Sequence record: KX009778
Source of the DNA: Escherichia phage UFV-AREG1
Direction: 5' to 3' (one strand)
Length of the DNA: 64,000 nucleotides
Of this stretch, positions 3,699-60,800 are shown piece by piece. Under the pieces are notes generated by a model that worked only from the letters and a program-made list of their open reading frames with translations, was not told where the DNA came from and made no database searches. The translations under genes were made by a program, and so were the position numbers. The first letter of the stretch is position 1, and the number at the start of each line of letters is the position of its first letter.

Positions 3699-3775
3699 TG
3701 GCCAGGGTGAAAGGATTCTAACCTTTAACCTGCGGTTTAGAGGACCGCTACTCTATACAATTGAGTTACACCCCG
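3699..3775 (-). tRNA. tRNA-Arg (anticodon TCT), CCA encoded
   Basis: Manual cloverleaf: acceptor CGGGGTG/CACCCTG, D-stem ACTC/GAGT, anticodon stem GCGGT/ACCGC with loop CCTCTAA, T-arm AAAGG-TTAGAAT-CCTTT. Confidence 0.8.
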
Positions 3776-3901
3776 TAATTAGTTCACAGCAATACCTACT
3801 CCAACAATCAAGATGTCTTCACACGAAATTAAGAGAAAAGTGATCAGTTCAACCCTTATAATCGCGTCAAGTAGATATTAATGTGACAACTGTCACAAGT
3901 T

Positions 3902-3976
3902 TGGCGGACATGCATGGATTCGAACCATGGACCAATTGATTAACAGTCAACTGCTCTACCACTGAGCTACACATCC
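3902..3976 (-). tRNA. tRNA-Asn (anticodon GTT), CCA encoded
   Basis: Manual cloverleaf: acceptor GGATGTG/CATGTCC, D-arm GCTC-AGTGGTA-GAGC, anticodon loop CTGTTAA, T-arm CATGG-TTCGAAT-CCATG. Confidence 0.75.
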
Positions 3977-3980
3977 AAAT

Positions 3981-4067
3981 TGGTGGGGAGTGATGGAGTC
4001 GAACCACCCGAGTCGCAATGACAATGGATTTACAGTCCACACCGCTACCTCTACGGGATAACTCCCC
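3981..4067 (-). tRNA. tRNA-Tyr (anticodon GTA), type II with long variable arm, CCA encoded
   Basis: Acceptor GGGGAGT/ACTCCCC, anticodon stem GTGGA/TCCAT with loop CTGTAAA, long variable arm, T-arm GGTGG-TTCGACT-CCATC; D-arm pairing is irregular. Confidence 0.6.
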
Positions 4068-4076
4068 AAATTAATT

Positions 4077-4153
4077 TGGTGACCCAGACCAGATTTGAAC
4101 TGGTAACCTTTCCCTTATGAGGGGACTGCTGCTAACCATTGAGCTACAGGGCC
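4077..4153 (-). tRNA. tRNA with CAT anticodon (Ile-lysidine type or elongator Met), CCA encoded
   Basis: T-arm ACCAG-TTCAAAT-CTGGT, anticodon loop CTCATAA; acceptor stem has one mismatch and one G-U. Confidence 0.6.
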
Positions 4154-4154
4154 T

Positions 4155-4230
4155 TGGTGCTGATTGACGGAATCGAACCGCCGACATCCTCATTACAAGT
4201 GAGGTGCTCTACCTACTGAGCTAAATCAGC
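4155..4230 (-). tRNA. tRNA-Thr (anticodon TGT), CCA encoded
   Basis: Acceptor GCTGATT/AATCAGC, D-arm GCTC-AGTAGGTA-GAGC, anticodon stem CCTCA/TGAGG with loop CTTGTAA, T-arm GGCGG-TTCGATT-CCGTC. Confidence 0.8.
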
Positions 4231-4232
4231 AA

Positions 4233-4319
4233 CGGAGGCGATAGGATTTGAACCTATGAGTCGCCGGAGCGACTGCCGGTTTTCAAGACCGGTGCATTAA
4301 ACCACTCTGCCACGCCTCC
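4233..4319 (-). tRNA. tRNA-Ser (anticodon TGA), type II
   Basis: Acceptor GGAGGCG/CGCCTCC, anticodon stem CCGGT/ACCGG with loop CTTGAAA, long variable arm, T-arm ATAGG-TTCAAAT-CCTAT; no encoded CCA. Confidence 0.75.
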
Positions 4320-4321
4320 AG

Positions 4322-4395
4322 TCTCCATACAAGGATTTGAACCTTGGACCTCCTGATCCCAAATCAGGCGCTCTACCAAACTGAGCTACACGGAG
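4322..4395 (-). tRNA. tRNA-Pro (anticodon TGG)
   Basis: Acceptor CTCCGTG/TATGGAG (two G-U), D-arm GCTC-AGTTTGGTA-GAGC, anticodon stem CCTGA/TCAGG with loop TTTGGGA, T-arm CAAGG-TTCAAAT-CCTTG. Confidence 0.75.
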
Positions 4396-4405
4396 TAAAT
4401 TAAAT

Positions 4406-4479
<74 letters not shown>

Positions 4480-4485
4480 AAACTT

Positions 4486-4572
4486 TGGTACGAGAAGTGG
4501 GACTCGAACCCACAAGGAAATCATTCCGCAGCATTTTAAGTGCTGTGCCTTTACCAATTTGACCATTCTCGC
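4486..4572 (-). tRNA. tRNA-Leu (anticodon TAA), type II, CCA encoded
   Basis: Acceptor GCGAGAA/TTCTCGT, anticodon stem CAGCA/TGCTG with loop CTTAAAA, long variable arm, T-arm TGTGG-GTTCGAGTC-CCACT region. Confidence 0.75.
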
Positions 4573-4573
4573 G

Positions 4574-4646
4574 CTGGGAATAAAGGACTCGAACCTTTGC
4601 ATCTAGCAGTCAAAGTGCTATGCCTTACCAACTTGGCTAATTCCCA
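4574..4646 (-). tRNA. tRNA-Gln (anticodon TTG)
   Basis: Acceptor TGGGAAT/ATTCCCA, anticodon stem TAGCA/TGCTA with loop CTTTGAC, T-arm AAAGG-TTCGAGT-CCTTT. Confidence 0.75.
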
Positions 4647-54564: not shown

Positions 54565-54598
54565 CAATGGGGACCGAAAGGTCCCCATATTTTTATTT
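54565..54598. terminator. Bidirectional intrinsic terminator between gene 54 and the alt region
   Basis: ggggacc-gaaa-ggtcccc hairpin followed by ATATTTTTATTT; sits between convergent genes. Confidence 0.6.
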
Positions 54599-54883: not shown

Positions 54884-54943
54884 TTTGTGTTCCTCATGTT
54901 ATGTCAGTAAAACTACTATAACACAATACGAGGGACTTGTAAA

Positions 54944-57001
54944 CTACATTTTGAACTTTTTAGACATTCTGTTGATGTTAACCAAAGAAGCTAAGATTTG
55001 AGAAACTTCGCTTTCCTCTTCTTTTGATTCTTCTACAAGGAATTGATTAAATCCAGCCATTGGACGAACTTCACCAGTTTCCATCAGATGGTCGCCATCA
55101 TATACTGATTCTTCTAATTGTTCAGAAGGAGGAACGATTGTACCTTCGATTAGATACTTATTATAAGCAGTTTCTTTCATCATGTACGTACTTACTTTAT
55201 TAATCTTCAGTAAAATTCCACGTGGTAGAATAACTTCAGCTTCTGATGGAAATCCTGATAAATGACCCGGAACGATAACTTTAACTCGTTCAGCTCCTTT
55301 AATTACCATACCTACATTAGTTTCAGCGTCTTCATTCGCATATGTAGAATGACTACCCATATGCATTAAATCTTCAGCATCAACTGAACCTTCTCCTTCA
55401 CCAGAAAATACTGCTCCGGAATCATCTAAGGCCATATAATTTTTACCATATTCACCGAAGATATTTGGCTTGAGTGAAGTAGATACAAAGTTCTTGAAAT
55501 AGAACATTTTATTTTCTATATTATGACGCAAAGTTTTAAAGGTAACTTCTTGCCCACGATAAAGAGTAGTTCCTGGAGGAAGAACTGAACCTTTAGAAAA
55601 TGCAGAATCCAGCGTCTCAATATGTTTAATAGCTCGTTCCATATATTCTTCACGGGTAGAATCAGGTTTACCTAAAAGGAATGAGTTCATTTCAACATAT
55701 GAATCTGCACAATAATCTTCAATTACATCAGATTCAGCCTGAGTTAATCCTTTTGGAGTTACTTCAGTGCTTGCATATTCATATGCCTGAGCAGCAGATT
55801 CATCAATTAATTTATAAATTCCATTCATTACAAATTGAATAATAGCTGTCTTTTCATCTGGTGTAGCTTTAGAACCTTTAACTAAATCATTGATAATTTT
55901 CTTAATAACATCAAAACTATTAGAAATATTAATGTCAGCAAGATCGCTTAAAATTTTATCAGTTTTATAATCAAAGAATTCTTTATTCTTTAAATATTCT
56001 TGAGAACCTTGATATGTTATATCGCTCTGCAGCTTGATAGATGGATCGCGTAAACGTGCATGGGCCAATGCAATATGATTTCGGAAGCTTTCTAGTTCAT
56101 AATCGCTAGATTTAAAACGAGAAGCACTTCTCATACCACCGATAGCTCCTTTGCTAAAGTTTGAACCAATCTGAATAACGCCAGAGTTCATTGATCCTTC
56201 TGCTTTATATACCGGAACTTTAGATTCAAACTCTTGATATTTCTTAGCAGCGAAGCTATCACCCTGGAGTGAAGCGTCAACAGTAGAATATTGAGCTTGG
56301 GCTGCTAATCGACGACTGATTTTAGTTTTCTGAATAACAGCTTGATCCGTGCGCTTATCATTTTCTAAAGCAATAGAAGCAGCAACAGCAACAGCTTTAG
56401 GAACAGCATTACCTGTTTTAACGTCTACATAAACATCACCAACCTTTGATTCAACTTTTGTGAATAACTCGGTTGAAATAGGAGGTACACCTGGAATGTC
56501 TTCTAATTTGGCATTTTTACGGTAAACCATAATATATGCGTACTTTTTATCATAATCCCAGATTTCCTTTAAAAGAACATATCGACCTGCTCCTTTAGTA
56601 CGTACTAAACGGTCAGCAATAACTTGCATTTGCCGAGCAGCGCCATTTGTTTTACTTTTTAGTACGCGGAATAGGCATGCATCAATTTTATACTGTTTCA
56701 TTGTTTGAAGAGCAGTATCAAAAACAGCATTAATGACGCCAATTGGATTTCCACCCAAGTTTTTAAGCTTAACTAATGATAGTTTCTCATTAACACCTAT
56801 CATTACGATATGCATCATTTTGTCGCCTGGCTTAACGTTTTTATTCGTATCACCGCCAGAGGTGTATGTACAAAATCTAAATCCAGGAAGCACGCTTTCT
56901 TCACCTGCTTGAATAGCAAAAATTTGAGGTATTTTATGCTTAGGATTTAAGTTAACAACCGGCGCCGAAGCGCCGTCAAATAATTCTGTAATAAGTTCCA
57001 T
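54944..57001 (-). CDS. alt: Alt-like NAD:protein ADP-ribosyltransferase, 685 aa (paralog A)
   Basis: R-S-ExE ART triad in C-terminal domain (LYRGQ, FVSTSL, SEAEVILPRG); N-terminus MELITE with gp21-type ITE cleavage motif; length close to T4 Alt. Confidence 0.8.
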   Translation of the reverse strand: MELITELFDGASAPVVNLNPKHKIPQIFAIQAGEESVLPGFRFCTYTSGGDTNKNVKPGDKMMHIVMIGVNEKLSLVKLKNLGGNPIGVINAVFDTALQTMKQYKIDACLFRVLKSKTNGAARQMQVIADRLVRTKGAGRYVLLKEIWDYDKKYAYIMVYRKNAKLEDIPGVPPISTELFTKVESKVGDVYVDVKTGNAVPKAVAVAASIALENDKRTDQAVIQKTKISRRLAAQAQYSTVDASLQGDSFAAKKYQEFESKVPVYKAEGSMNSGVIQIGSNFSKGAIGGMRSASRFKSSDYELESFRNHIALAHARLRDPSIKLQSDITYQGSQEYLKNKEFFDYKTDKILSDLADINISNSFDVIKKIINDLVKGSKATPDEKTAIIQFVMNGIYKLIDESAAQAYEYASTEVTPKGLTQAESDVIEDYCADSYVEMNSFLLGKPDSTREEYMERAIKHIETLDSAFSKGSVLPPGTTLYRGQEVTFKTLRHNIENKMFYFKNFVSTSLKPNIFGEYGKNYMALDDSGAVFSGEGEGSVDAEDLMHMGSHSTYANEDAETNVGMVIKGAERVKVIVPGHLSGFPSEAEVILPRGILLKINKVSTYMMKETAYNKYLIEGTIVPPSEQLEESVYDGDHLMETGEVRPMAGFNQFLVEESKEEESEVSQILASLVNINRMSKKFKM

Positions 57002-57004
57002 GAT

Positions 57005-59098
57005 TTATCCTTGAACGAACTTGTAAGGCATGTTTGTAATATCTATGCAAGACGCAATAATTCCAAGAGATGATTCTACTTTCTGTTTAATATTTGATGA
57101 AACAAATGATGCAAAGTCAACTCTGTCTTCTATTTCAATATCACCTGTCATTGCAACCAATTCACCAGTTTCCATTAAATGGTCTCCATCATAGATTACC
57201 GATTCGGTGAGCTCTTCCGTGGTCATAACTTCAGCTTGAATGAGTTTTGTATTATTAGATGTTGTTCCGTCATTATTAGAAGCATCGATTATTTTATTAA
57301 CTTTGACCATCAATCCACGCGGTAGAATAACTTCAGCTTCTGTTGCTATTCCGAGACTTCCTGGATATACAACATTAACTTTATGAGCTCCATCAATTGC
57401 CCATCCTATTTGAACTTTAACATATTCAGGATTTTCTTTATACGCTCTTATTTCGTTTGGATTAATAGTTATTCCTTCTTCATTTTTATCAACTGTTAAT
57501 TCATTGCGAGCTCCTGGTTCTAAAAGACCAATACCAGCATGTGTGATTCCAAAACGTCCAAAAATGATAGGAGTTAAAGAAGTAGATACAAAATTTCTGA
57601 AGTAGAACACTTTATTTTTAACTAACGCTTCATATATAGGAGCAGTCATACTTTGAGCACGATAAACTGTAATGCCTTCTGGTATACGGTCACCATTTTC
57701 AAAAGCTGAATCTAAGTTATTTATAGCAGATTCAATTTCTTTTTCACTCATTACATCATATCGTTCTGGATTGTAACGACCTAAAAGAAGATTATTGATG
57801 TCAGTATATCCTGAACCGCAATATTCTCTAATGCCACGCTTTTGTGATGGAGTATATTTAGAACCATCGCGGGCAATAGTAATATCAATCATTGGACCAG
57901 CACCAATTCCAGAAAAACTGTAAATCATTCGTTTGAGGAATTTAGTTTTTGCTGCGTTCCAGGAATTTTTAGTTATTTCTTCCCAGACTTCATCTGGTTG
58001 TCCTTTACGATTTTTATTATGATTAGCAAGCCATTTATCTTTATAATCTTCAAAGAATTGATTTACAGCTGCTGCGTATTTCTCTAAACATTTTATTGAA
58101 GTAGTTGGTTCATTTTTAATTGCATTAAAAATTACTTCTTTAATTTTTTCTGAAACTTCACCGACTTGACTCATTGGAAAGAATTTATAATCATAGTGAA
58201 GTTCATCTGCCGTTCCTTCAGCAATAATTTTTGCTGCCTTTGTTTTAGAAGCTAATGAATTAATTCCAATTTTCATTTCTTCTGCTTCGGGAATTAAAGG
58301 TGCAGTAGCTGGTTTATTAAAATTAGCTGCTGTAGATTCATACTTCTGGAATAATTCACTTTCAAATCTAGAAGATTCCAATGACTGACTTTGTGCAATT
58401 GCTCTACGGGAAATTTTAACTTTAACGATTACAGCTTGGTCAGAACGTTTATCATTTTCTTGCGCAATAGATGCTGCAATTGCTTCATTTTTAGTTACTT
58501 GAGCTCCAGTATCTTTATTGATATAAACATCACCGACCTTCGATTCAACTTTAGTAAAGAGTTCAGTGCTAATTTCTGGAACTCCTGGAATGTCTTCTAG
58601 TGATACATTTTTGCGATGTATAAGAATATATGCATACTTTTTATCATAATCCCAGAGTTCCTTAAGAAGGACGTATCTGCCACCTGAACGACTACGGATA
58701 AGTCTATCAGCAATAACTTGAATTTGTCGAGCTTGGCCAGCAGTTTTAGACTTAAGAATACGAAGCATACAAGCATCAATTTTATACTGACGCATTGTTT
58801 GCATTGCAACAGTAAAAACTGAATTGATATAATTAATTGGGCTTGGCCCAAGACCTTTCAATTTAGCAATTGAACCTTTAGCAGTTAATGTAAAAGGAAC
58901 AATATGCATCATTTTATCGCCCATCTTTAAATCACGATTAGTATCACCTCCAGATGTATAGGTACATAAACGAAAGCCTGGTTGTTCAATTGCGTCATCG
59001 ACATGAACTGAAAAAATTTGTGGTATCTTCTTCTTTGGATTTAAGTTTGTAATCGGAAGAGTAGTATCTTCGTCAAATAATTCTGTAATAAGTTCCAT
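57005..59098 (-). CDS. alt: Alt-like NAD:protein ADP-ribosyltransferase, 697 aa (paralog B)
   Basis: Same N-terminus MELITELFD and conserved first ~200 aa as paralog A; ART triad VYRAQ, FVSTSL, TEAEVILPRG; divergent central region. Confidence 0.8.
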   Translation of the reverse strand: MELITELFDEDTTLPITNLNPKKKIPQIFSVHVDDAIEQPGFRLCTYTSGGDTNRDLKMGDKMMHIVPFTLTAKGSIAKLKGLGPSPINYINSVFTVAMQTMRQYKIDACMLRILKSKTAGQARQIQVIADRLIRSRSGGRYVLLKELWDYDKKYAYILIHRKNVSLEDIPGVPEISTELFTKVESKVGDVYINKDTGAQVTKNEAIAASIAQENDKRSDQAVIVKVKISRRAIAQSQSLESSRFESELFQKYESTAANFNKPATAPLIPEAEEMKIGINSLASKTKAAKIIAEGTADELHYDYKFFPMSQVGEVSEKIKEVIFNAIKNEPTTSIKCLEKYAAAVNQFFEDYKDKWLANHNKNRKGQPDEVWEEITKNSWNAAKTKFLKRMIYSFSGIGAGPMIDITIARDGSKYTPSQKRGIREYCGSGYTDINNLLLGRYNPERYDVMSEKEIESAINNLDSAFENGDRIPEGITVYRAQSMTAPIYEALVKNKVFYFRNFVSTSLTPIIFGRFGITHAGIGLLEPGARNELTVDKNEEGITINPNEIRAYKENPEYVKVQIGWAIDGAHKVNVVYPGSLGIATEAEVILPRGLMVKVNKIIDASNNDGTTSNNTKLIQAEVMTTEELTESVIYDGDHLMETGELVAMTGDIEIEDRVDFASFVSSNIKQKVESSLGIIASCIDITNMPYKFVQG

Positions 59099-59136
59099 GT
59101 TATCCTCTCTAGTGTTTATTCTATTTATAAAATTAA

Positions 59137-59150
59137 AGGCCCGAAGGCCT
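59137..59150 (-). terminator. Tetraloop hairpin upstream of the Alt-like genes
   Basis: aggcc-cgaa-ggcct hairpin between the 61-aa ORF and the Alt-like gene start. Confidence 0.4.
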
Positions 59151-59154
59151 TTAA

Positions 59155-59340
59155 TTAATAGAGAGCTAAAAGAGTACGATATACTTCAAACTTTGGACCT
59201 TTTTCATATGGATCAAATCTTTCCGTGAATTCATCATATGCTAGTTTATCTGGGAATTCAAGAATAACCTGCGATACCGCAGTGGAAACATCTCCACCTT
59301 CTTTTTGAGCCACGACAATTGTTTCTAAGTAAGCTTTCAT
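59155..59340 (-). CDS. Hypothetical small protein, 61 aa
   Basis: ORF overlapping the ligase stop by 4 nt. Confidence 0.5.
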   Translation of the reverse strand: MKAYLETIVVAQKEGGDVSTAVSQVILEFPDKLAYDEFTERFDPYEKGPKFEVYRTLLALY

Positions 59341-60800
59341 AAACCAGTTACCTCATGAAAATCGCCAAATACATCTTCGAACGTATTAGCTTTAGTTTTA
59401 TCTTCACGTAAACGAATTGCAATTGGAAGAAATAGCTTAACGTAATCAGTACGTCCATCTAATTTTACCCAGCCGTTGCATTCGCACTCTAGAATTTTTC
59501 CAATATAATAATTTTGGTTTTCCATAATGCGAGTACGATCAAGTTCATGCGATTTTATACCGGCTTTATCTTTTAAGCCTGAACCAGCATTTACTTTAAT
59601 TTTTCCACACTCTGATTCAAGAATGAAACCACCTGCTTTAGTAGGGTCTTTACGGTGAGGATAAATTCCTACAATTTTTAAATCAACATCAATTACTTCT
59701 TTAAATTTATAAAGATTTTTTGAACGAGCATTTTCCCATAATCCATCGATATTTTTGAGAATAATACCTTCAAGACCTTGGTCAATATACTTTTTGTAAA
59801 TAACCTTAGCTTCATCTAGGTTATTTACTACTTGGTTTTCAATTAAAATTACTTTATCATAGCCTGATGTCATTTGTTCTAGTTTAGAAAAACGTACATC
59901 ATATTTTAAACGAAATGCTGGAAGACCATATATTTCTACTAATGGAACATAGTCCCAGACCTGAAACTTCATGCATTGTGCTTCTTTTTCAGAAATGGTT
60001 CCCTTTAAAGATTTATTAGCGATTCCATTAGAAGTAGTACGTGATTCAGCTACTTCGGCGAATTCTTTAGCTTTACTAATTTCAGGATAAGCATCAAAAA
60101 GAAAATCTAGGCCTTCTGGCTCCTTTTTAACTTGCTCATGGTATACCAATTCGCCATCAATTAACACACCTTCTGGATGAATCTGGCGAGCTTCTGCAGT
60201 CATTTTGATTAACTCTTCTTTGAGAAGGTCTAATCCTAGATATTCATTACCAGCTCGTGATAAAAGACGAACATCATCTAATTCATCACCTCTGACTTCG
60301 GCAAAGCACCGAGCTCCATCAGCTTTTAATTGGGCAAAGGCTGGAAATTTGATATTCTTATTAATGCCTTTTTCATCATAAGAACTTGCCAGCATTTGAG
60401 GTTGTTCAGGAATTAAACCTGGCCAAACTTTGTTTGCAATAGATACTGATGCACCGCATTCAAGGTCTCGCATCATCACCCGACGCAAAACTTCAACATC
60501 ATCTTTTTTACCGTCAGCAATATATCCAGTCAATTCCTCAATTGCCGCATTTCCAGTCAATTTCCGAGTAGCTAATGTGAATTCAATGAAGTCAAGCATA
60601 TCGGTAAGAGTCAACATTCCAAAACTCTGGGTAGCAATACCAGGTTTAGGCCATTTCTTGATATAATACTGTAACCCACGAGAATAAGTTAGACGATATA
60701 CTCGTTTAAGCAATTCATTATCTTTATTCTTTTCAAGAATTGCTTGCTTCTGCTTAGTTGAACCAATAGATGCTATTTCATTCAGAATTTTAAGAATCAT
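59337..60800 (-). CDS. 30: gp30 ATP-dependent DNA ligase
   Basis: 487 aa; adenylation motif KADGAR; length matches T4 DNA ligase. Confidence 0.95.
   Translation of the reverse strand: MILKILNEIASIGSTKQKQAILEKNKDNELLKRVYRLTYSRGLQYYIKKWPKPGIATQSFGMLTLTDMLDFIEFTLATRKLTGNAAIEELTGYIADGKKDDVEVLRRVMMRDLECGASVSIANKVWPGLIPEQPQMLASSYDEKGINKNIKFPAFAQLKADGARCFAEVRGDELDDVRLLSRAGNEYLGLDLLKEELIKMTAEARQIHPEGVLIDGELVYHEQVKKEPEGLDFLFDAYPEISKAKEFAEVAESRTTSNGIANKSLKGTISEKEAQCMKFQVWDYVPLVEIYGLPAFRLKYDVRFSKLEQMTSGYDKVILIENQVVNNLDEAKVIYKKYIDQGLEGIILKNIDGLWENARSKNLYKFKEVIDVDLKIVGIYPHRKDPTKAGGFILESECGKIKVNAGSGLKDKAGIKSHELDRTRIMENQNYYIGKILECECNGWVKLDGRTDYVKLFLPIAIRLREDKTKANTFEDVFGDFHEVTGL

Follow-up and report, generated by a model that had tools for sequence, protein, structure and literature searches.

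Two adjacent genes on the minus strand of Escherichia phage UFV-AREG1 encode Alt-like ADP-ribosyltransferases (ARTs) of 697 and 685 amino acids (aa). They lie in a 64,000-nucleotide (nt) stretch of this phage (sequence record KX009778), which was analysed as a whole and is called the window here. Both proteins start with MELITELFD, and an earlier note on this DNA had described them with exactly the open reading frame (ORF) coordinates that we confirm (Table 1). The upstream gene corresponds to alt of phage T4, and the downstream gene to a full-length Alt paralog, of which T4 has kept only fragments.

When the two proteins are aligned with each other, as the earlier note had proposed, they are 42% identical across their full length (BLASTP); the E value of 8e-166 excludes that this resemblance is due to chance. 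Both are assigned to PHROG 802, "Alt-like RNA polymerase ADP-ribosyltransferase". In the segment alignment the identity is 68% over residues 1-238, about 36% in the ART domains and about 46% over the last 55 or so residues, and the central residues (239-420) reach 15-25% when an alignment is forced. Comparison of small family profiles with hhalign gave a probability of 100% for the N-terminal region and for the ART region, whereas the centres reached 0.6%; the unrelated centre is thus real and about 180 residues long. The earlier note had recognised both the shared N-terminal part and the unrelated centre, but its lengths of about 200 and 250 residues have to be changed to about 238 and 180. 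A hidden homology between the two centres was discarded on the hhalign result, which covers sequence profiles and would still be compatible with a shared helical fold. Outside the Alt family no relatives of the paralog centre were found, since a phmmer search against 1.84 billion representatives returned a single match that is itself an Alt-family protein. A search of NCBIfam gave no match. In the PDB, a sequence search detected unrelated ADP-ribosyltransferases with weak scores (E 0.04-0.55) but no relative of Alt. The Alt N-terminal domain is on record as Pfam PF26846 (Tevenvirinae_ADPRT) for family members, near-identical ones included.

The catalytic domain was identified in both proteins with Pfam PF03496 (ADPrib_exo_Tox), scoring 125.1 bits in the 697-aa and 73.6 bits in the 685-aa protein at a gathering cut-off of 23.4 bits. 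In the 697-aa protein YRAQ starts at residue 479 (Arg480), STS is found at 505-507 and EAE at 587-589 (Glu587-Ala-Glu589); in the 685-aa protein YRGQ starts at 481 (Arg482), followed by STS at 507-509 and EAE likewise at 587-589 (Glu587-Ala-Glu589). The Pfam matches and motif positions bear out the proposal of the earlier note that both proteins are Alt-like ARTs with an intact R-S-ExE triad. Arg482, Ser507, Ser509, Glu587 and Glu589 of the paralog, as well as its Glu6 and Glu631, are invariant across 28 family members. An ART fold is predicted for the paralog, and no defect of the NAD site was detected in either protein. AlphaFold modelled the paralog with a mean pLDDT of 74.5. In this model an N-terminal domain of alpha/beta type is followed by a centre made up entirely of helices and by the ART domain, most blocks of which have a pLDDT of 80-92. 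A Foldseek search of the PDB with this ART domain retrieved Vis (E 1.8e-7), C3bot, Certhrax, CDTa, VIP2 and iota Ia, all with a probability of 1.00. Sequence and model support the assignment of both proteins to the R-S-E class of ADP-ribosyltransferases (Alt/VIP2 clade), with a predicted NAD-dependent activity. In the class of the C3-like and iota-like toxins the Glu-x-Glu form is linked to arginine targets. Mutation of the catalytic Glu of T4 Alt, named E577A by the authors, abolishes its activity (PMC11404850). We count the ExE motif of RefSeq T4 Alt at Glu574-Met-Glu576 (L001:8455-10503, minus strand), so that the two numberings are offset.

Alignment to T4 Alt (P12726, 682 aa), also proposed in the earlier note, gave an identity of 70% for the 697-aa and of 41% for the 685-aa protein. 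The 697-aa gene is found at the same position as T4 alt: both lie between alt.1 and the paralog (or its remnant) and follow the same late promoter. Residues 1-238 of the two Alt proteins are nearly 100% identical (one difference) and the C-terminal tails 88-100%, and the ITE-6 and LTE cleavage motifs and the R-S-ExE residues are alike. Residues 239-630 represent a deeply diverged allele, in which the identity amounts to 12-33% in the centre and 53-75% in the ART domain. Alignment and position together identify the 697-aa gene as alt, the positional ortholog of T4 Alt in its T2/T6/RB51 allele. In a family alignment of 28 sequences the ART domains form two clades, an Alt type and a paralog type; the paralog clade has an ART identity of 36-37% to Alt and no detectable homology to it in the centre. 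As judged from these alignments, the 685-aa protein is a member of the Alt family that belongs to a separate paralog clade and is not the ortholog of T4 Alt. The gene named "alt.-2" in RB51 and the second "Alt-like" genes of T2 and T6 are the same gene as the window paralog, all with 685 aa.

T4 encodes a single Alt of 682 aa, as the earlier note had stated, and no second large paralog, on which the note had been in doubt; only the fragments alt.-1 and alt.-2 are present. According to the T4 record, these arose when the first part of alt was duplicated long ago. Their PHROG families match residues 1-56 and 62-117 of the paralog, better than they match Alt, and blastn of the T4 locus against the window revealed a clean gap of about 1.69 kb, T4 lacking window positions 54964-56653. 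Because the intact gene is present in relatives, including another genus, and because the blastn gap is clean, a partial duplication of alt was rejected. The alignments establish alt.-1 and alt.-2 as the deletion remnant of a full-length paralog, leaving T4 without the second enzyme.

The gene pair is already known: it is deposited and annotated, and the duplication has been mentioned in the literature. Both window proteins are residue for residue identical to YP_009281528.1 and YP_009281529.1 of UFV-AREG1, both titled "Alt-like RNA polymerase ADP-ribosyltransferase", and many records among the matches listed use this name for both genes. A 4.9-kb stretch was found by megablast in 540 phage records, 353 of which cover at least 80% in one piece with identities of up to 99.1%; the matches are Tequatroviruses of Escherichia, Shigella, Yersinia and Salmonella. 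The central 187 residues of the paralog are present with at least 90% amino-acid identity in 400 GenBank phage records and with about 46% identity in 44 further records, with Dhakaviruses among the matches listed. Direct reading of the loci showed the same pair (697 and 685 aa) in T2 and T6, and RB51 and JoYop also carry both genes. Since close relatives contain the same two genes at near identity, the novelty implied by the earlier note does not hold.

The duplication is old and both copies are maintained. In Dhakavirus JS10, alt is likewise present as two full-length genes, with the position, order and 3-nt spacer seen in the window, and the downstream copy has a paralog-type centre with 46% identity, therefore the duplication predates the split of Tequatrovirus and Dhakavirus. 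Ratios of nonsynonymous to synonymous substitutions (dN/dS; Nei-Gojobori; window, RB51, T2 and T6) are 0.04-0.06 for the paralog and 0.05-0.08 for Alt. Low values are found for the N-terminal domain, the centre and the ART domain of both genes (0.02-0.11 in the paralog centre), and higher ones, on few sites, in the short C-terminal tail. Both genes are under strong purifying selection.

The phage protease gp21 cuts T4 Alt at ITE-6 and at a second site discovered later, LTE-619, resulting in a protein of 68.2 kDa (PMC5694885); our calculated mass of mature T4 Alt is identical to this value. The earlier note had taken the ITE at the start of both proteins as a gp21 motif, and it is indeed the published cleavage site (ITE-6 in MELITE). 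It had overlooked the C-terminal block SVYDGDHLMETGE, which is common to both proteins and directly follows a second gp21-type L-x-E site. In Alt the site that aligns with LTE-619 of T4 is LTE-632, and in the paralog it is LEE-631; in both proteins it precedes S-V/I-Y-D-G-D. All family members examined have retained an [ILM]-x-E motif, after which come Ser or Ala and the YDGD block. The predicted masses of the mature proteins are 70.0 kDa for Alt and 69.2 kDa for the paralog.

The predicted late promoter TATAAATA upstream of alt is located behind the hairpin that ends alt.1. It is found at -31 of alt in RB51, T6, T2 and JoYop too, and at -36 in T4. In a comparison of T4 with five T4-like phages, a terminator upstream of alt was predicted in five of the six genomes (Nolan et al. 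2006, PMC1524935). Only 3 nt (57002-57004) separate the stop codon of alt from the ATG of the paralog, and the junction CAAGGATAAATCATG has the same letters in RB51, T6, T2 and JoYop. A second TATAAATA occurs within alt (57718-57725, minus strand), 724 nt upstream of the paralog. The T2/T6-type alleles have it in common, whereas JoYop lacks it. Since JoYop carries a T4-type Alt together with the paralog, this internal copy is probably incidental and was not kept as a separate late promoter for the paralog. The most economical reading is that a single late transcript is made, that both genes are translated from it and that both proteins are packaged and trimmed. The shared gp21 motifs (ITE-6 and LxE-631/632) and the single predicted late promoter suggest that both proteins are probably packaged, trimmed and injected. 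A T4 head contains about 40 copies of Alt, which are ejected together with the DNA (PMC9026906), and Alt modifies RNA polymerase and other proteins (PMC9026906, PMC5512222, PMC10468400).

The alt locus is subject to recombination. Between the window and T4, the synonymous divergence (dS) of alt is 0.13 in codons 1-238 and 0.07 in the tail, and 1.35 in the centre and 1.19 in the ART domain; on these values Alt is a recombinant mosaic within the genus. The Alt allele of the window (T2/T6/RB51 type) was found with at least 90% identity in 314 records; the T4-type centre is only about 34% identical to it. Both Alt alleles co-occur with the paralog. Reading the loci directly, we found four configurations: T2/T6-type Alt with the paralog (window, T2, T6 and RB51), T4-type Alt with the paralog (JoYop), T4-type Alt with the remnant (T4), and a single chimera of an Alt N-terminal part and a paralog body (Yersinia phage PST, L009:1742-3802). 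ECML-134 and vB_EcoM_SCS4 give the same single-piece match of 2653 bp as PST, and single chimeric genes are also located on two metagenomic contigs (L005 and L006, Table 1). In PST, ECML-134 and SCS4 the body of the chimera, that is centre, ART domain and tail, is that of the paralog (about 96-99% amino-acid identity). These phages have one gene instead of two, the body of Alt itself having been removed by unequal crossing-over within the shared N-terminal domain. The crossovers map to about nt 310-327 in PST, 160-184 in L005 and 500-540 in L006, each coinciding with a short stretch of 14-17 bases that the two paralogs have in common. As judged from these breakpoints, which differ between lineages, the chimeras arose by independent unequal crossovers. 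Assembly artefacts were rejected as an explanation: the same arrangement is found in the isolates PST, ECML-134 and SCS4, and the N-terminal regions of the two paralogs are only 67% identical in DNA. The deletion in T4 and the chimeras in PST, ECML-134 and SCS4 show that either enzyme body can be lost; at least one was retained in every genome examined.

Table 1. Features of the alt locus in the window, from upstream to downstream on the minus strand, and chimeric genes on two contigs
Feature	Position	Strand	Basis or remark
gene 30 (DNA ligase)	59337-60800		beyond alt.1
alt.1, 61 aa	59155..59340	-	Pfam Phage_blade; upstream neighbour
GC-rich hairpin AAAGGCCTTCGGGCCTTT then AATTTT, terminator-like, upstream of alt	59135..59152	-	just past alt.1 stop codon; sequence reading
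T4-type late promoter TATAAATA	59122..59129	-	motif match; begins 31 nt upstream of alt ATG
alt, 697 aa, T2/T6/RB51 allele	57005..59098	-	ORF, alignment to T4 Alt, Pfam
alt N-terminal propeptide, aa 1-6 (predicted)	59081-59098	-	ITE motif
alt N-terminal domain, aa 7-238	58385-59080	-	
alt variable helical centre, aa 239-~418	57845-58384	-	
alt ART domain, up to LTE-632	57203-57844	-	
alt C-terminal propeptide, aa 633-697 (predicted)	57008-57202	-	
paralog ribosome-binding site AAGGA (predicted)	57008..57012	-	within final alt codons
full-length Alt paralog, 685 aa ("alt.-2" in RB51)	54944..57001	-	ORF listing
paralog N-terminal propeptide, aa 1-6 (predicted)	56984-57001	-	
paralog N-terminal domain, aa 7-238	56288-56983	-	
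paralog-specific helical centre, aa 239-420	55742-56287	-	
paralog ART domain, up to LEE-631	55109-55741	-	Arg482, Ser507-Thr-Ser509, Glu587-Ala-Glu589
paralog C-terminal propeptide, aa 632-685 (predicted)	54947-55108	-	
paralog stretch absent from T4 (~1.69-kb deletion)	54964..56653	-	blastn, T4 locus vs window
early-type sigma-70 promoter (G)TTTACA-N17-TATAGT with TG, paralog/alt.-3 spacer	54915..54943	-	consensus match only
alt.-3, 96 aa	54593..54883	-	DUF5498; final gene of minus-strand block
bidirectional terminator hairpin between gene 54 (+) and alt.-3 (-)	54567..54588	both	9-bp stem, 6 GC pairs
chimeric gene	L005:5001-7061		Alt N-terminal part and paralog body
chimeric gene	L006:5001-7055		Alt N-terminal part and paralog body

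The gene order around the two ART genes is that of T4. The flanking genes gp29, gp48 and gp54 are encoded on the plus strand, and the minus strand carries, in this order, alt.-3, the two ART genes, alt.1 and the DNA ligase gene 30. Elsewhere in the window, a cluster of ten tRNA genes is located at 3699-4646 on the minus strand (Arg, Asn, Tyr, Met/Ile(CAT), Thr, Ser, Pro, Gly, Leu and Gln). T4 has eight tRNA genes and is not known to have those for Asn and Tyr. The small gene alt.-3 is preceded by its own match to an early-type promoter (GTTTACA-N17-TATAGT). In T4, variants of Alt.-3 with C-terminal extensions escape the CmdTAC defence (PMC11618068).

We consider it likely that the locus is a late operon of a T-even phage (Tequatrovirus) for two paralogous arginine-type mono-ADP-ribosyltransferases, and that both enzymes become part of the prohead core, undergo trimming by gp21 and reach the host by ejection. 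Their conserved N-terminal domain, together with the two propeptides, would carry both proteins into the prohead, and trimming by gp21 would generate mature forms of about 70.0 and 69.2 kDa. Once ejected with the DNA, each enzyme would modify arginines of host proteins using host NAD+, in the case of Alt those of RNA polymerase and others. The helical centre of the paralog and its ADP-ribosylating turn-turn (ARTT) loop, with an aromatic residue three positions before Glu-x-Glu, might give it targets that differ in part from those of Alt. The ARTT position before ExE contributes to substrate recognition in C3-like and iota-like toxins. The paralog clade has Phe or Tyr three residues before the first Glu of ExE (GFPSEAE, EYPEEAE, AFPDECE), the Alt clade has Ala, Pro, Gln or Ile there, and the residues of YR(G/S/A)Q are also specific for each clade. 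Since the centres are unrelated and the ARTT loops clade-specific, it is plausible that Alt and the paralog have partly different targets, as the earlier note had proposed on account of the central domains.

Several points have to be set against this interpretation. Our literature searches (virion proteomics and biochemistry) found no experiments on the presence of the 685-aa protein in virions, its cleavage by gp21, its ejection or its activity. The confidence of the paralog model is low in the insertion at residues 517-554 and in the C-terminal tail, and the link between the ARTT residue and the substrate is an analogy drawn from C3-like and iota-like toxins, not from Alt. In addition, natural phages do without either body (T4 without that of the paralog; PST, ECML-134 and SCS4 without the centre and ART domain of Alt), so that the functions of the two enzymes may overlap.

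Such an overlap would be complete if the paralog were a redundant copy that is packaged and injected like Alt, acts on the same targets, above all RNA polymerase, and only raises or secures the activity. The catalytic motifs, the N-terminal domain and the processing motifs that it shares with Alt would fit this, as would the natural loss of either body (T4; PST, ECML-134 and SCS4) and the fact that T4 Alt itself is not essential (PMC9026906). However, if a copy is purely redundant, one would expect it to decay or gene conversion to homogenise it. The two clades have instead been distinct since at least before the split of Tequatrovirus and Dhakavirus, their centres have no detectable homology, their ARTT loops are consistently clade-specific, and purifying selection acts strongly on the paralog centre in its own right (dN/dS 0.02-0.11). 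Simple redundancy seems unlikely to us.

It might also be that the paralog is made late but stays unpackaged and acts inside the producing cell, for instance on host or phage proteins late in infection. This would leave the retained N-terminal domain (68% identity to Alt), the MELITE start, the C-terminal LxE followed by YDGDHLMETGE and the invariant Glu6 and Glu631 without an obvious use, since none is apparent beyond prohead targeting and gp21 processing. Furthermore, in PST, ECML-134 and SCS4 the chimera of the Alt N-terminal part and the paralog body is the only remaining Alt-family gene. Although two other ADP-ribosyltransferases of T4, ModA and ModB, act without being packaged (PMC5512222), and although the literature searches found no virion proteomics of a phage with both genes, we regard an unpackaged paralog as quite improbable. 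A decaying or catalytically dead duplicate is hardly credible: T4 does show that a phage remains viable when the gene is destroyed, but the frame of 685 codons is intact in 400 records (centre at least 90% identical), dN/dS is 0.04-0.06, all catalytic residues are invariant, and the Pfam score is three times the cut-off. A pseudogene was rejected on these grounds.

A further-reaching interpretation, which we offer tentatively and consider less likely than not, is the following. The alt locus of T-even phages could be a cassette with two slots for injected effectors, in which a constant delivery module, made up of the N-terminal domain and the two gp21-cut propeptides, would be combined with exchangeable modules for target recognition and catalysis. 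The paralog would then hit other host proteins, possibly defence or stress factors. Within one genus, at least three bodies that have diverged deeply (T4-type Alt, T2/T6-type Alt and paralog) circulate and recombine, which suggests an exchange of modules. The fold of the Alt N-terminal domain is also seen in uncharacterised phage proteins under other names.

As far as we found, the knowledge of phage-injected ADP-ribosyltransferases rests on T4, which injects one, Alt, and which is said to use three ARTs in all (PMC10468400). T4 is the exception here, since T2, T6 and most sequenced Tequatroviruses carry a second Alt-family enzyme that is intact, strongly constrained and probably injected. The model phage lacks the paralog body and can therefore not answer whether the second enzyme is present in virions or what its targets are, and our literature searches found no paper on either subject. 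Should the targets differ from those of Alt, the paralog could be one reason why T4 and its relatives differ in host takeover or in the evasion of bacterial defences. If the two-slot cassette exists, T4 would be an impoverished model, and most T-even phages would inject two different ARTs and encode four instead of three. The role of the second enzyme is a modest gap in knowledge that can easily be tested, and not a new kind of system.

The duplication of alt has been mentioned before, for T4 alt.-1/alt.-2, RB49 and 44RR (Nolan et al. 2006, PMC1524935) and for JS98, Bp7, Ac42 and ZZ1 (Jin et al. 2014, PMC4177764); these papers note the second copy without studying the enzyme. The duplications in the Dhakaviruses JS98 and JS10 and in 44RR, Bp7, Ac42 and ZZ1 belong to other genera and have a much lower identity. 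Beyond the Alt family, the toxins of the C3-like, Vis, VIP2, iota and CDTa types have the catalytic fold and the R / S-T-S / ExE motifs of the window proteins, at sequence identities of 13-20%, but have neither the Alt N-terminal domain nor the helical centre nor the gp21 propeptides. ModA and ModB of T4 have been placed as paralogs with the Alt/VIP2 clade (PMC5512222); unlike the Alt-type proteins, they are small and are not packaged.

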